From Oscillospiraceae bacterium (GTDB lineage: Bacteria; Bacillota; Clostridia; Oscillospirales; JAAYXM01), in NCBI GenBank assembly GCA_017439555.1, contig JAFSIZ010000050.1:439-64438 (forward strand): a stretch of 64,000 nucleotides of DNA, written 5' to 3'. The position numbers and the translations under genes were made by a program. This document shows positions 4,868 through 9,791 of this stretch, in pieces. The stretch's first letter is position 1; the number at the start of each line of letters is the position of its first letter. A model generated the notes under the pieces. It was not told where the DNA came from. It made no database searches and saw only the letters and a list, made by a program, of their open reading frames with translations.

Positions 4868-7795
4868 ATGAAAAAGAGGATTTTATCGCTGATACTTTGC
4901 TTTATAATGGCGTTGTTGCTTTTGCCGACAGCGGTATTCGCAGAAGAGTCGGAAGTTACAATCGTAGCAAGTGGCACTTGTGGAACAAACCTTACATGGA
5001 AACTTGATGATGAAGGAACACTCACCATCTCCGGCACAGGCGCGATGAAGGATTATTCATATTCATCTTCATCTACTGCACCGTGGCATTCAAACAAAGG
5101 TAGCATCAAAAGTGTTGTTATAGAGCACGGAGTAACAAGCATTGGGAACTATGCGTTTTACAATTGCACAAACCTTGCGAGCATAACAATCCCAGACGAA
5201 GTAGCGAGCATCGGTGTCAGTGCGTTTTTTGGTTGCAGAAGCCTCACAAGTATAGCAATCCCAGACGAAGTAACGAGCATCGGTGTCAGGGCGTTTTTTG
5301 GTTGTAAAAGTCTTCCAAGCGTAGAAATCCCTAATAGCGTAACGAGCATTGGAGAAGGTGCATTTGAGGGGTGCGAAAGCCTTGAAAGAATAACAATTCC
5401 GAATAGTGTTACAAGTATTGGATATGGTGCATTTTCTGATTGTACAAGTCTTCCAAGCATAGAAATCCCTAATAGCGTAACGAGCATCGGAAACTCTGTG
5501 TTTCGCGGTTGCACTGCTCTTGAAAACATAACAGTTGACAAAGATAATGCAGAGTATTGTACTGAAGATGGCATATTATTTAACAAAGCAAAAACAACTC
5601 TTGTTACATACCCCGCGAACAAAGCAAAAACAAGTTATGTAATCCCAGACAGCATAACAAGTATCGGTGACTGGGCTTTTAACGGATGTACAAGCCTCAC
5701 AAGCATAACAATCCCGGACAGCGTGACAAGCATTGGAATCGGTGCGCTTGAGGGGTGCGAAAGCCTTGCGAGCATAACAATCCCAGACGAAGTAACGAGC
5801 ATCGATGTCAGGGCGTTTTTTGGTTGTAAAAGCCTAACAAGTATAGCAATCCCAGATGGCGTAACGAGCATCGGTGGAGGGACGTTTATGTGGTGCAGCA
5901 GTCTCACAAGCGTAACAATCCCGGACAGCGTAACAAGTATTGCGGAAAGTGCGTTTTTTGGTTGCAGAAGCCTCACGAGCATAACGATACCGGACAGCGT
6001 AACGAGCATCGGAGACGATGCGTTTGGGTATTGCAGAAGCCTCACGAGCGTAACAATCCCGGACAGCGTAACGAGCATCGGAAACTATGCGTTTTACAAT
6101 TGCACAAACCTCGTTATATATGGTTTTGCAGGTTCATATGCTCAAAGCTACGCAAAGACAAATGATATAGCATTCGAGCTTATTCAGGTGCCGGTAACGG
6201 GAGTGTCGCTTGATAAGAAAACCCTCTCGCTCTATACGGGCGAGAGTGCAACGCTTACAGCAATGATAGCACCGAGCAATGCAACAAACATAAATGTTTT
6301 TTGGTCAAGCACGAATGAGACTGCGGTTACTGTAAGCGAAGGAACACTTACGGCGAATGCGGCGGGAACTGCAATCATAACGGCGCGAACAGAGGATGGA
6401 AACAAGGTGGCAACCTGCGTGGTGACAGTTACAGACCGGATTGTGGTTGCGACACTTACACTTGATAAATCCGTTTTGGATATCAAGAGCGGTAACAGCG
6501 AAAAACTCAATGTAATCTTTAATCCCGAATATACAACAGACAAAACCGTGACTTGGTTGAGTTTGGACGAAAGCATAGCAACGGTTGATGAAAACGGTGT
6601 TGTAAAAGGAATCGGAGAAGGTAGTACAACAATTATTGTTATGAGCAATTCTGGTAACAAATCGGCAAGCTGTACTGTAAATGTAACGGAGCCTATCACC
6701 TATTCCTTCGGGCAGTCTGTGCAGATAGGTCTTATTGAGCCGTGGTTTTTAAAGGCAAATGCCCGCGTTTACACAGTTGAAAATCCGATAAATATTGATT
6801 ATTCAACACTTGTTGATTACGGAGCATACTTTATCCGCAAAAGCGAGCTTTCGGATAAAAACGCAACGCAGGATACTCTCGCCGTTGAGGACATAATCAA
6901 CGACTCTGATACCGTCAAGTATTCAAAGTCGGCGGGAACTGCAACGGTTGACGGAAGCTACATCACGGCAAGCTACGACAAAGGGCTTTATACCTATGAA
7001 ATGTCGGATTCAATATTCGTTCTCTTCTATATAGAGGATGAAAGCGGAATGAGCTATGCGCCAATCCGTGAGCGGAATATGAAAGAGCTTTTGGAGAAAA
7101 GAAAGAATGATACAGAAAATTTCGAAAATGTTCTTGAGCGAAATGTATATACCGCGATGGATAAGCTTGAGCTTAATATCGGAGTATACAGAGCGCAGTT
7201 TGATGAAATAGACGAGCTGCCCGTTATGAGCGCACCGCGGCTTTCGGATTATGTCGCGGAAAATGGTGCGTTCGAAGAAGAGACCGCAAAGAGCTATAGC
7301 TTTGGAAATTCCGTTCAGATAATTCTCGTCGAGCCGTGGGGACTTAAATTCAATGCGCGAGTATATAATGGTGCAAATCCAACCAACATAAACTACGGAA
7401 GCATTGAAGAATATGGCGCAATCGTTTATTACGACACTGAAGGAAATGCTGAGTCGATGACTGCGGAAGAGCTCAGAACAAAGAGCGATGCCTATGTGTT
7501 CAGTAGCAAGAACGGCGATGCGACGATTGACGGAAGCTATATCACTGCTCTTTATAACAAAGGTATATACACATATCAGCTTGACAGCAATGCATACGTA
7601 ATGTTCTATGTCAAGGATGAAAACGGATATCACTACGGTGATGTCAAGGTGAGAAATGCCTATGAGCTTGCAAAGGTAAGAGCACAGGACACAACGGGCA
7701 ATTTCGGAGAACAGGAAAAGCAAGTATATCTTGATATGGTCGAGATGTATGAAGCCGTCAAGGCATACAGAGACGATTATTTTGCAAATAACTGA
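4868..7795 (+). CDS. Secreted BspA-type leucine-rich repeat (LRR_5) protein with two Big_2 Ig-like domains and a duplicated C-terminal domain
   Basis: Signal peptide; GTCGTNLTWKLD..GTLTISGTG cap; about 13 IPDSVTSIGxxAFxGCxSL repeats; VTGVSLDK/VTWLSLDESIATVD Big_2 motifs; two YSFGxSVQIxLxEPW domains. Confidence 0.9.
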   Translation: MKKRILSLILCFIMALLLLPTAVFAEESEVTIVASGTCGTNLTWKLDDEGTLTISGTGAMKDYSYSSSSTAPWHSNKGSIKSVVIEHGVTSIGNYAFYNCTNLASITIPDEVASIGVSAFFGCRSLTSIAIPDEVTSIGVRAFFGCKSLPSVEIPNSVTSIGEGAFEGCESLERITIPNSVTSIGYGAFSDCTSLPSIEIPNSVTSIGNSVFRGCTALENITVDKDNAEYCTEDGILFNKAKTTLVTYPANKAKTSYVIPDSITSIGDWAFNGCTSLTSITIPDSVTSIGIGALEGCESLASITIPDEVTSIDVRAFFGCKSLTSIAIPDGVTSIGGGTFMWCSSLTSVTIPDSVTSIAESAFFGCRSLTSITIPDSVTSIGDDAFGYCRSLTSVTIPDSVTSIGNYAFYNCTNLVIYGFAGSYAQSYAKTNDIAFELIQVPVTGVSLDKKTLSLYTGESATLTAMIAPSNATNINVFWSSTNETAVTVSEGTLTANAAGTAIITARTEDGNKVATCVVTVTDRIVVATLTLDKSVLDIKSGNSEKLNVIFNPEYTTDKTVTWLSLDESIATVDENGVVKGIGEGSTTIIVMSNSGNKSASCTVNVTEPITYSFGQSVQIGLIEPWFLKANARVYTVENPINIDYSTLVDYGAYFIRKSELSDKNATQDTLAVEDIINDSDTVKYSKSAGTATVDGSYITASYDKGLYTYEMSDSIFVLFYIEDESGMSYAPIRERNMKELLEKRKNDTENFENVLERNVYTAMDKLELNIGVYRAQFDEIDELPVMSAPRLSDYVAENGAFEEETAKSYSFGNSVQIILVEPWGLKFNARVYNGANPTNINYGSIEEYGAIVYYDTEGNAESMTAEELRTKSDAYVFSSKNGDATIDGSYITALYNKGIYTYQLDSNAYVMFYVKDENGYHYGDVKVRNAYELAKVRAQDTTGNFGEQEKQVYLDMVEMYEAVKAYRDDYFANN
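5110..6111 (+). repeat. Tandem ~69-bp LRR-encoding repeats
   Basis: Recurrent ACAATCCC(A/G)GAC...GTAAC(A/G)AGCAT units; some near-identical, e.g. AACTATGCGTTTTACAATTGCACAAACCT at ~5146 and ~6083. Confidence 0.85.
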
Positions 7796-7820
7796 AAAAT
7801 AAAGAAAGGAGAGACGGAAA

Positions 7821-7952
7821 ATGAAGTATGAAACACCCAAAATGCAGGTGATTGAGATTTCTGCAACCGATGTCATTAAGACAAGCGGAAGCGGAACCAC
7901 AGGCGGCGATGCCACAGGTAATGTTGGCGGCGGTGGAAACTTAGAGGACTAA
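7821..7952 (+). CDS. 43-aa small peptide with YxxP leader-like motif and Gly-rich tail (lasso/RiPP-precursor-like)
   Basis: Below the ORF-track cutoff; RBS AAAGGAG; MKYETPKMQVIEISATDVIKTSGSGTTGGDATGNVGGGGNLED; lies between the LRR gene stop and a terminator. Confidence 0.75.
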   Translation: MKYETPKMQVIEISATDVIKTSGSGTTGGDATGNVGGGGNLED

Positions 7953-7965
7953 TCCGAGAAACAGT

Positions 7966-7998
7966 AAAAGAGCTATGGCATCTTGCCATAGCTCTTTT
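7966..7998. terminator. Bidirectional intrinsic terminator between the peptide gene and thiN
   Basis: AAAAGAGCTATGGCA-TCT-TGCCATAGCTCTTTT. Confidence 0.85.
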
Positions 7999-8622
7999 CT
8001 ATTTCCGTATTTTTATCAGCAGTGCTCTTCCTTCTTTGACAGATACCTCGGAAAGCTTTCCGGGGAGCGGTTCATTGCTTATTCCATATTGGTATTCGAC
8101 GCTGATTTCCGCGTTCTCAAGCGGGAATTTGGCGTTTTTTTCATACACACCGCGACAGGTGCCGTCTATGTTCAGAAGAGAAAAGTATGGGTAAGAATCG
8201 TCGATATATTTTGTTTCCGAATCGAGGATTTCCATTTCCGAATAATCGTCAATGATTTTTCCGCGAAGCCCTTTTGAATGAAGCATAAGAAGAATAGAAA
8301 CATTGCCAAGTGTGTGGTCGAGTCTTCCTCCGCATACGCCGATGAGGAGAAAATCGGAAAAGCCGCGCCTGATTGCCTCCTTGACAGCAAAGACCGTGTC
8401 CGTATCGTCTTTTTCGCGGGGGAGTGTGATCGTCTCGGTGTCGGTATCGGGGGCAGGATGAGAATCAAAATCCCCGACGATAAGATTTGCAGGGATATTC
8501 AAAGCCGCCTGATGACGGAGACCGCAATCGCAGAAAATGTTGAAATCATTTTCTTTGAGATATTTGCGGATTGCATCATAATTTTCGATCACGGCACCGC
8601 CGATAATCACACATCTGCTCAT
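7999..8622 (-). CDS. thiN: Thiamine diphosphokinase
   Basis: CDCGL, IVGDFDS, EKDDTDT, GGRLDHTLGN, YGISNE motifs. Confidence 0.92.
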   Translation of the reverse strand: MSRCVIIGGAVIENYDAIRKYLKENDFNIFCDCGLRHQAALNIPANLIVGDFDSHPAPDTDTETITLPREKDDTDTVFAVKEAIRRGFSDFLLIGVCGGRLDHTLGNVSILLMLHSKGLRGKIIDDYSEMEILDSETKYIDDSYPYFSLLNIDGTCRGVYEKNAKFPLENAEISVEYQYGISNEPLPGKLSEVSVKEGRALLIKIRK

Positions 8623-9791
8623 TTTTTGAAACTTCCTTTGATTTTATTTACCGCGACACACATCGCAACGGTTATAATCATATCGGGCAAGGTGCTGCCG
8701 ATTACGATGTCAATATGCATAAGTGCGCGGTATATGATAAAGCCGATAAGCCATATAACGAGGTTTGAAATATTGAATTTTCCGCTTTCGCCATTCTTTT
8801 TCAGAATAAAGAAGTCTGCAATCTGAACAGCGATCATCGGCGCGAATACTGAGCCGATAAAATAGAGAAAGCCGGTTATATCATAGAGAGGAAGAAAGAT
8901 TGCGGCGCATATACCGATTGCTGTTGTTCCGACAGCGAACCATTTGCCGCTGATTTTCGAAAACAGTGATTCGCTCGATACACCGGCAGAATATGCGTCA
9001 AGAAAAGTGGTTGTGACTGTGGAAAATACAATAATGAGAAGCCCTGCCGTTCCGAGGCCTGCCTTGAGCATAATGGCGGCGATGTCGCTCTCACCTGTGA
9101 ATATTGCCGCGCTCATTCCGATGATATACATCCAGCAGCTTACAGCTCCGTAGGTAATTGCGCTTGCGGCCGTTGCACGGACAGGGGACTGTGCATCTCT
9201 TGTGTAGTCGGAAATGAGAGGAAGCCAGGAGAGCGGCATTGCAACCGAGAGCTCAACAGCGGCATCAAAGCTGATTGCTTCTCCTGTGAGATTGCCTGCA
9301 CTGTTGCTTGTGAAGATAACAAAGCTTAAGACCAATGTGAGGACAAAAAGCGCTGACATGGAAAGTGTGTTAAGTCCTCTGAGATTTTTTATACCGACCA
9401 GAATCCAGAGGATAATAAGCGCACCGATAATTATGCACCAAAGCCGGTTGCCGATATTGAGAACTGAGTTTGCCGCAACTGCTCCGTCATATATCATAAT
9501 GGACGTCCAGCCGACGAGCTGAAGAATGTTCAGAATTGAGAACAGAAAACCGCCTTGTGTGCCGAAGCTCAGCTTCACGGTTTCCATAGAGCTTTTGCGC
9601 GTTCTGCCGCCTATAAGACCTGCGGCAAAAAGAAGCGCCACACCGATTATATGTCCTATTATAATCGCAAAAAGCCCTTTTGTAAAGCCGAGTGGGGCGA
9701 AATATGTACCGGTGAGAATCTCGGCGATTGAGACCGCCGCACCAAACCAGATAAGCCCGTTTTCAAAAACGGAAGTGCCTTTTTCAGTCAT
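8619..9791 (-). CDS. cytX: Hydroxymethylpyrimidine transporter CytX (NCS1 family)
   Basis: IWFGAAVSIAEILTG, LQLVGWT, AMPLSWLPLISDYTR; thi operon context. Confidence 0.9.
   Translation of the reverse strand: MTEKGTSVFENGLIWFGAAVSIAEILTGTYFAPLGFTKGLFAIIIGHIIGVALLFAAGLIGGRTRKSSMETVKLSFGTQGGFLFSILNILQLVGWTSIMIYDGAVAANSVLNIGNRLWCIIIGALIILWILVGIKNLRGLNTLSMSALFVLTLVLSFVIFTSNSAGNLTGEAISFDAAVELSVAMPLSWLPLISDYTRDAQSPVRATAASAITYGAVSCWMYIIGMSAAIFTGESDIAAIMLKAGLGTAGLLIIVFSTVTTTFLDAYSAGVSSESLFSKISGKWFAVGTTAIGICAAIFLPLYDITGFLYFIGSVFAPMIAVQIADFFILKKNGESGKFNISNLVIWLIGFIIYRALMHIDIVIGSTLPDMIITVAMCVAVNKIKGSFKK

Follow-up and report, generated by a model that had tools for sequence, protein, structure and literature searches.

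The subject of this work is a 43-codon open reading frame (ORF) in a 64,000-nucleotide (nt) stretch of an Oscillospiraceae bacterium genome (assembly GCA_017439555.1, contig JAFSIZ010000050.1, positions 439 to 64,438 of the forward strand; hereafter the window), where it follows the gene of a 975-amino-acid (aa) secreted surface protein (Table 1). The ORF probably encodes the precursor of a ribosomally made, post-translationally modified peptide (RiPP) of the linear polyphosphorylated peptide (LPP) type, being an lppA-like gene of a clostridial branch whose product would be matured in trans. We favour this reading because the peptide family co-occurs, and in other genomes clusters, with homologues of three enzyme genes: an HprK-like kinase, a RiPP recognition element (RRE) and a signal-peptidase-like protease. 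The product is most likely a small processed peptide of the LPP kind, and it is probably phosphorylated.

The first-pass annotation of the window had described the ORF as 43 codons long, with a strong ribosome-binding site (RBS), behind a leucine-rich repeat (LRR) gene and ahead of a shared terminator, and this layout stands. The stop codon of the upstream gene lies 25 nt 5′ of the peptide ATG, a gap at which the two genes are predicted to be co-transcribed. Pfam and NCBIfam scans of the 43-aa peptide gave no match. Scanning every ORF of the genome (200 contigs, 2.68 Mb, 84% complete) first with a motif and then with a hidden Markov model (HMM) returned exactly seven paralogs, the window peptide and six others, with E values of 1e-20 to 7e-23 (next match, E 2.9). 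A surface-protein gene stands immediately ahead of each. When a profile built from the seven was searched against 1.84 billion proteins, it recovered 1314 cluster representatives at E ≤ 1e-3, so a lack of homologues, which the first-pass annotation had named as grounds for doubt, is not what was found.

The family is defined by its leader, MK(K)YxxPx[ML]x[IV]I..x..DVIxTS, after which the G/D/E/N/T-rich tails vary. Across 94 aligned relatives, S22 never varies, and conservation reaches at least 90% at each of Y3, P6, D17, V18, I19 and T21. Among the best 150 of the 1314 representatives, all but one (1211 aa) are 32-77 aa long, the Y-to-S spacing is constant at 20 residues in 143, and the tails comprise 8-54 residues, of which 25% are G, with D, E, N, T, S and P also abundant; Cys occurs in the tail of 7. 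A GGAG-type RBS is kept at all six close loci, codon differences in the leader (15 pairs) amount to 78 synonymous versus 111 non-synonymous, and G36, G39 and D43 are invariant among the 21 members of the subfamily to which the window peptide belongs. A full-text literature search for the motif DVITTS found nothing. Were the frame a chance ORF in an intergenic tail, giving no product, its very short length, the lack of a family-library match and the want of a listed RNA run would be expected; at the level of sequence conservation, however, this is refuted by the 1314 representatives, the invariant residues, the fixed leader length, the RBS and the position, and we give it practically no weight. 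Judged by its conservation, the 43-codon ORF is a genuine gene, far beyond chance.

LPPs of Bacillota were described by Popov et al. (Nat Commun 2026; PMC13381572). Their precursors have 35-200 aa, with YxxPxVLxHQxIxFETxxS as the leader and a C-terminus that varies (PMC13381572). The machinery consists of LppK, an HprK-like kinase, LppB, a discrete RRE, LppS, a peptidase resembling signal peptidase I (SpI), LppD, an exporter, and LppN, a nucleotidyltransferase, in the gene order lppA-K-B-S-D-N (PMC13381572). LppK adds several phosphates to core Ser3, which lies 18 residues past the Tyr, and LppS, whose triad is S29/H68/D93, cuts after T-1 only if LppB presents the leader; the YxxP leader itself is an RRE-binding motif common to lasso and LPP precursors (PMC13381572). 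The family found here resembles this system in its YxxP leader with a variable C-terminus, in a discrete PqqD-type RRE, in an HprK-like kinase, in a soluble archaeal/SipW-type Ser/His/Asp peptidase adjoining the RRE, and in having no lasso cyclase. The conserved Ser is placed similarly, about 18-19 residues past the Tyr (19 here, 18 in LppA). The published consensus is matched only in its Y, its P, its hydrophobic residues and the closing S, here one residue further out.

The first-pass annotation had seen no RRE gene in the window and had suggested looking for one elsewhere. Indeed, the only PqqD match of the genome is on contig C108, beside, and overlapping with, the gene of a 149-aa protein (Table 1). 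This protein belongs to a family of at least 2480 clusters, named 'hypothetical protein' and coming from Oscillospiraceae and Lachnospiraceae metagenome-assembled genomes, one form of which is fused to PqqD. Invariant in the family are G-x-S-M-x-P (S25), H64 in LHR, GDN, and D90, and the spacing of S25/H64/D90 (39/26) compares with that of the LppS triad in the published description. A Pfam scan of the 149-aa protein gave nothing, and a search of PDB sequences with it gave chance matches only (E 0.36 or worse). Its AF2 model (pLDDT 87.8), in contrast, placed LexA, UmuD, SpsB, SipA (4n31) and human signal peptidase on top of a fold search (E from 2e-3, probability 1.00). A cluster-linked homologue (from locus L118, below) matched TIGR02228, archaeal-type signal peptidase I, at 1.5e-9 (37.9 bits, cut-off 51.85), and SipW at 6e-5, under the cut-off. 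We therefore regard the 149-aa protein, on the basis of its modelled fold, as a soluble predicted leader peptidase of the S24/S26 fold group.

SipW (TasA/TapA, Bacillus subtilis) and SipA (pili of Streptococcus pyogenes) are other signal-peptidase homologues of the endoplasmic reticulum (ER)/archaeal type, dedicated to proteins of the cell surface. SipW is a membrane enzyme that cleaves the Sec signal peptides of the surface proteins themselves. The enzyme found here, in contrast, has no membrane anchor at its N-terminus and forms a pair with an RRE, and it would act on a small peptide rather than on the neighbouring surface protein. Ahead of the RRE-protease pair on C108 are the genes of a 3043-aa surface protein and of a 444-aa ceramidase-like protein (Ceramidase_alk, E 2.5e-6, under the cut-off).

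The putative kinase gene lies on another contig, C98, behind two genes that look larB- and larC-like by eye. Its product matches Hpr_kinase_C at E 4.4e-5 (23.5 bits, under the 33.3 cut-off), and the P-loop G-x-G-K-S-T-H is invariant in eight aligned cluster-linked homologues. The best NCBIfam match of the kinase-like protein is ScmC of SynChlorMet systems (TIGR04249; E 1.5e-5 to 3.3e-3 in 6 of 7 cluster-linked homologues), and the RRE weakly matches ScmD (TIGR04248). These scores are far under cut-off, however, and ScmE/F radical SAM genes are not there, save for a different maturase in genome G038; a literature search on SynChlorMet/ScmC gave, among the papers listed, only unrelated uses of the acronym. 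Right behind the kinase gene is a 195-aa ORF with a marginal match to the protease profile (E 0.013), probably by chance.

Co-occurrence was assessed in two samples: 41 relatives, searched for the peptide and the RRE-protease pair, and 300 class-level genomes, searched for peptide, protease and kinase. Among the relatives, 25 have the peptide and 27 the RRE-protease pair; both are present in 23 and neither in 12, leaving two with the peptide only and four with the pair only. In the class-level sample the peptide was found in 41 genomes, spanning 19 taxonomic families, the protease in 108 and the kinase in 110, and every one of the 41 peptide-positive genomes has the kinase and all except one (40/41) the protease. 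The HprK-like proteins fall into two types, a full-length one of ~235 aa and one of ~290-400 aa that matches from model position about 32-77 (mostly 55-77). It is the former that goes with the peptide, which is present in 38 of the 53 genomes with the full-length type versus 3 of the 247 others. Most genomes with the ~290-400-aa type also have the protease and almost never these peptides; this type presumably serves a different precursor family not detected here.

In eight class-level genomes (L114 to L121, Table 1), a peptide gene of the family and the protease gene are on the same strand and no more than about 2 kb apart. The most complete of these clusters, L118, has the gene set and order A-K-B-S-D-N of the published LPP locus, with an MsbA-like ABC protein and an NTP_transf_5 protein in the places of the exporter and LppN; an ABC gene is also present in L121. 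By analogy, the seven precursors of our genome would be processed as follows. The YxxP leader would be bound by the single discrete PqqD-type RRE encoded on C108, and the HprK-like kinase from C98 would phosphorylate a conserved hydroxyl residue at the leader/core junction, for which S22, invariant, and T21, nearly so, are candidates. The RRE would then present the junction to the signal-peptidase-like protease, which would remove the leader somewhere within D17-S22, and the resulting short, acidic, Gly-rich product would be exported from the cell. Alignment by Tyr puts the T-1 of LppA at V18 and alignment by Ser puts it at I19.

Several observations weigh against this assignment. The leader ends in DVIxTS rather than FETxxS, with the Ser one residue further; the precursors span 31-77 aa, and their cores are far shorter (8-54 residues as against 45 in LppA). 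The enzymes were set beside LppS, LppB and LppK by the published descriptions of these, not by direct sequence comparison, and the NCBIfam and Pfam scores of kinase, RRE and protease are all under the curated cut-offs. In this genome the link between peptide and enzymes rests on co-occurrence because the enzymes are on other contigs, and related genomes are not independent, so that Fisher values overstate the association, although the pattern across families is still clear. Two relatives, each 87% complete (G007 and G008), have the peptide without the RRE-protease pair, and one class-level genome (G203) has it without the protease; conversely, 68 class-level genomes have the protease with no detected peptide, and 15 genomes have the full-length kinase type with no peptide. 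No PqqD gene lies between kinase and protease in G224 and G329, NTP_transf_5 was not found in our genome (84% complete), and no RNA run containing the stretch was listed in the search.

The arrangement, too, is unlike that of the published loci. Where these are from Bacilli, with a precursor in a capsule locus, here, in Clostridia, the precursor is directly behind a secreted-protein gene, the seven precursors are dispersed, and the kinase and the RRE-protease pair are unlinked from the precursors and from each other. Together they occupy nine separate places on eight contigs, two precursors sharing C41, and none of the seven lies near the kinase or the pair, so the clustering that marks LPP loci is absent from this genome. 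Clostridia, surface proteins, orphan precursors and action in trans go unmentioned in the main text of PMC13381572, whose Supplementary Data 1 has a few clostridial peptidase nodes, in minor network clusters outside the one studied.

The first-pass annotation had called the peptide lasso-precursor-like and had offered an orphan RiPP with maturation in trans as one of two readings. As a lasso precursor it would depend on a cyclase and B proteins from genes at another site, and would be closed into a Gly1-Asp8 macrolactam after cleavage behind T-S. The residues that the annotation had named are all present in the window copy: Y3 and P6 of the YxxP leader, T21 two residues before G23 (position -2) and, if the tail is numbered from G23, Gly at position 1 and Asp (D30) at position 8. 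The PqqD protein of the genome, moreover, scores best against lasso RRE models (NF033530, E 1.9e-9; TfuB1, E 3e-5). The window copy, however, merely happens to fit the pattern, and its relatives do not. Among the best 150 relatives, the tail begins with G in 64 and with G, A, S or C in 82, and with N in 14, P in 12 and D in 11; D or E is found at tail positions 7-9 in 83, at the level of chance (49% expected from composition). The tail of the window peptide is without a bulky plug residue. In the canonical lasso leader the Tyr is at -17 and the Pro at -14, whereas in the window peptide they are 20 and 17 residues before G23.

The enzymes of lasso maturation, which the first-pass annotation had proposed to seek outside the window, are likewise not in evidence. 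In the genome (84% complete), Transglut_core3 (B2, PF13471) had no match above cut-off; the best, at E 0.047, falls in a frame interrupted by stops. Asn_synthase (PF00733), the cyclase family, gave partial matches of the PP-loop type, which reach no further than model positions 16-133 of 354 and are never beside the RRE; nor is there a cyclase-sized gene between peptide and protease in the eight linked clusters. The lasso reading is thus largely refuted by the sequences, and we hold it to be very improbable. Of the earlier proposal, maturation in trans is well supported, whereas the lasso chemistry is not, the core rules failing across the family. The phosphorylated paeninodin-type lasso clusters of Bacillota are similar in their [Y/W]xxP leader, discrete RRE and HprK-like tailoring kinase (PMC13381572). 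They differ in that no macrolactam synthetase and no B2 cysteine protease were found here, the core ring rules do not hold, and the leader peptidase is of the S24/S26 fold group.

A YxxP leader could in principle also deliver the peptide to a radical SAM/SPASM maturase, giving a ranthipeptide or sactipeptide-like product. This idea derives from one locus of G038 (L078, Table 1). It has a weak leader relative (E 5e-5, FxDAEVEVV..EDIVTAS) whose tail is rich in Cys and, next to it downstream, such a maturase (TIGR04463, E 2.9e-37), a PqqD protein, an HprK-like protein and an ABC transporter. Neither the window peptide nor any of its six paralogs, however, has Cys in the tail; only 7 of the best 150 relatives do, and the other eight linked clusters contain no radical SAM gene; we consider such a modification of the window peptide scarcely credible. 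L078, preceded by a surface protein whose C-terminus is group-B-like (see below), looks like a hybrid of radical-SAM and LPP-type parts.

What sets the present genes apart from those of the published LPP loci is their coupling to genes for surface proteins. The protein encoded upstream of the window peptide has a signal-peptide-like N-terminus and matches LRR_5 (E 6.9e-123) and Big_2 (E 4.7e-26). In 26 loci from this genome and its relatives, the peptide gene is nearly always behind the gene of a signal-peptide protein, at -8 to +25 nt, and in 27 of 29 loci from 29 class-level genomes a large ORF ends -11 to +51 nt before the peptide start. Signal-peptide-like N-termini were found in 27 of 34 upstream ORFs; of the other seven, six are cut by the ends of the loci and the last encodes a release factor. 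A wide range of families is represented upstream (LRR_5, Big_2, cohesin, Flg_new, heparinase II/III, GDSL lipase, MBG), and the C-termini of these proteins differ as well, falling into groups A (5), B (11) and D (5), lipoproteins (5), two DUF975-type membrane proteins and six singles. Groups A, B and D showed no relation to each other in hhalign (probabilities 7.1, 0.8 and 0.3) and are therefore no single common 'receptor' domain.

This coupling also lends itself to a rival reading. The peptide could be an unmodified partner, the full 43-mer binding the adjacent surface protein, for example by beta-strand addition to an Ig-like module, or helping its folding or secretion. Such a role would account for the near-constant place of the gene right behind secreted-protein genes and for the co-inheritance of one C-terminal module (module A, below) with its peptide subfamily, and a complex predicted between that module and the unmodified peptide lends it weak support. 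The peptide, however, has no signal peptide, so that an unprocessed form would remain cytoplasmic while its neighbour is exported. Moreover, the conserved part is an RRE-type leader, and it is the same across three unrelated groups of upstream C-terminal domains; a leader that is constant whatever the upstream protein fits one common recognition machine and not each neighbour. The family is also nearly confined to genomes with the kinase and the protease, and the pair of surface protein and peptide persists inside full enzyme clusters. We thus judge the unmodified partner unlikely. The first-pass annotation had put forward a two-gene module of surface protein and YxxP peptide in place of RiPP maturation; such a module is real and conserved, but it is not an alternative to maturation because the pair persists where the enzymes are clustered with it.

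A Pfam scan of module A, the C-terminal module of the surface protein in the window, gave nothing. Its AF2 model (pLDDT 92.3) has two beta-sandwich-plus-helix units, for which a fold search found generic tandem Ig/FnIII-like matches only (TM about 0.2). Four other proteins, all with a peptide gene next in line, have C-termini that share 64-80% identity with module A, while the remainder of these proteins is unrelated in two (cohesin, Flg_new) and 26-33% identical or unmatched in two LRR_5 proteins. It occurs in 37 clusters with varied N-terminal architectures, and it pairs with the peptide subfamily that has the conserved tail (I/L)TGG...GN.GGGG..ED. In species-representative genomes, a peptide gene comes next, at 16-25 nt, in 6 of 7 evaluable loci with module A relatives of at least 39% identity, L136 being the exception; three distant relatives (27-29%) have no peptide behind them. 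Module A and the peptide gene travel together in this genome. Covariation of tails with domains is not usable as proof of binding: the tails of group B are unrelated, and co-duplication of close paralogs explains the covariation. The surface protein itself ends in ...AYRDDYFANN, with no LPXTG or C-terminal membrane segment visible.

Modelling of the peptide with the C-terminal domains of the surface protein, which the first-pass annotation had proposed, gave an ipSAE of 0.60 for module A with the unmodified peptide (0.62, 0.60 and 0.60 in the runs), the best control reaching 0.01. The partner's pLDDT did not fall under 52, and the runs had no fewer than 66% of contacts in common. When the tool was calibrated, 116 of 157 solved complexes and 2 of 215 mismatched pairs came up to the mark, but only 18 of the 157 solved complexes scored 0.60 or under, as did both passing mismatches; because the prediction used alignments that we built ourselves, these counts hold only roughly. 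The model therefore modestly raises the odds of a direct partnership, as weak support for binding rather than a demonstration of it. We hold it quite possible, though somewhat short of probable, that the processed peptide serves as module A's dedicated partner.

We tentatively extend this to LPP-type peptides at large, which may be dedicated partners of cell-surface proteins, the short acidic peptide, freed of its leader and phosphorylated, binding the Ig-like plus helix module outside the cell; this wider proposal is the more doubtful of the two. The precursor and the secreted protein would come from the same transcript, a single set of kinase, RRE and protease would serve many such pairs, and the peptide would tether its protein to the envelope or switch it. 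In the Discussion of PMC13381572 the function of LPPs is called unknown, so this would, if true, be the first one for the family. It would also be a new way to equip Gram-positive surface proteins, without LPXTG or another known anchor.

Whatever its purpose, the element that seems new here is the wiring, that is, the coupling of precursor genes to surface-protein genes, which by the sequences compared is a general feature. LPP-type machinery would be widespread in gut Clostridia (protease in 108 and kinase in 110 of the 300 sampled genomes), separable from its substrates and able to serve many dispersed precursor genes. The precursors, in turn, appear hard-wired to genes for secreted surface proteins, be they adhesin-like LRR, Ig-like, cohesin or glycan-degrading proteins. 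This coupling hints at what the peptides are for and makes LPP function testable: the peptide may bind, anchor or regulate its neighbour. Genome mining that requires a precursor beside its enzymes would miss most members of this family.

Table 1. The peptide gene and its surroundings in the window, candidate processing genes elsewhere in the genome, and loci of other genomes. Locations without a contig label are window positions.
Feature	Location	Strand	Remarks
Peptide ORF	7821..7952	+	ATG 7821; 43-aa product MKYETPKMQVIEISATDVIKTSGSGTTGGDATGNVGGGGNLED
Stop codon of peptide gene	7950..7952	+	TAA
Shine-Dalgarno sequence of peptide gene	7804..7813	+	GAAAGGAGAG; AAAGGAGAG at about 7805-7813; read from sequence
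Predicted leader, residues 1-22	7821..7886	+	MKYETPKMQVIEISATDVIKTS; YxxP RRE-binding motif and conserved DVIxTS end
Predicted tail/core, residues 23-43	7887..7949	+	GSGTTGGDATGNVGGGGNLED; subfamily motif (I/L)TGG...GN.GGGG..ED
Hairpin terminator	7966..7998	.	Common to convergent gene 7999-8622; 15-bp stem, 6 GC pairs, T-runs both sides
Gene of 975-aa secreted surface protein	4868..7795	+	Signal peptide, BspA-type LRR_5, 2 Big_2, C-terminal module
Module A, residues 608-975 (368 aa) of surface protein	6689..7792	+	Two repeats, beta-sandwich then long helices
PqqD-type RRE	C108:11881-12165		PF05402 E 4.7e-15 / 1.7e-15; only PqqD gene of the genome
149-aa signal-peptidase-like Ser/His/Asp protease	C108:12165-12611		Overlaps RRE gene
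HprK-like kinase	C98:13775-14473		E 6.6e-80 to alignment of cluster-linked kinases
195-aa ORF behind kinase	G000:C98:14492-15079		
3043-aa surface protein gene and 444-aa ceramidase-like gene	G000:C108:1294-11878		
Linked cluster	L118		732-aa secreted protein - peptide - HprK-like protein - PqqD - protease - MsbA-like ABC - NTP_transf_5 (E 3.9e-50)
Linked clusters	L119, L120		1738/1750-aa protein - peptide - kinase - PqqD - protease
Linked cluster	L121		525-aa protein - peptide - 142-aa protein - kinase - PqqD - protease - ABC
Linked cluster	L117		As L121, lipoprotein replacing the 142-aa protein; no ABC gene after protease
Linked clusters	L115, L116		Kinase and protease, no PqqD between
Linked cluster	L114		Peptide then protease
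Hybrid locus	L078 (G038:C52), 6348-9181	-	Weak leader relative and radical SAM/SPASM maturase

Further branches of the family were met among the relatives and class-level genomes. More than ten copies of the precursor family occur in G223 (13 matches) and G023 (11 matches), and contig C42 of G289 has two in tandem (L098). In six loci of G012, G011 and G007 (L044-L049), a subfamily with the conserved tail ..GFLSLFSGGTTSMSSDRGMNLTSYRID stands behind the gene of a ~400-aa secreted protein, with a gap of -1 to 14 nt; the gene downstream encodes a ~2260-aa surface protein in four of the six, while L047 has a 458-aa gene in that place and the peptide of L048 belongs to subfamily A. Another subfamily, KLEIVT..DVITTS..F.SLF..SGIEDGG.ASL (L005, L043, L052, L053 and L055), lies 98-211 nt behind the genes of homologous ~330-aa lipoproteins, and it may form a separate transcription unit.

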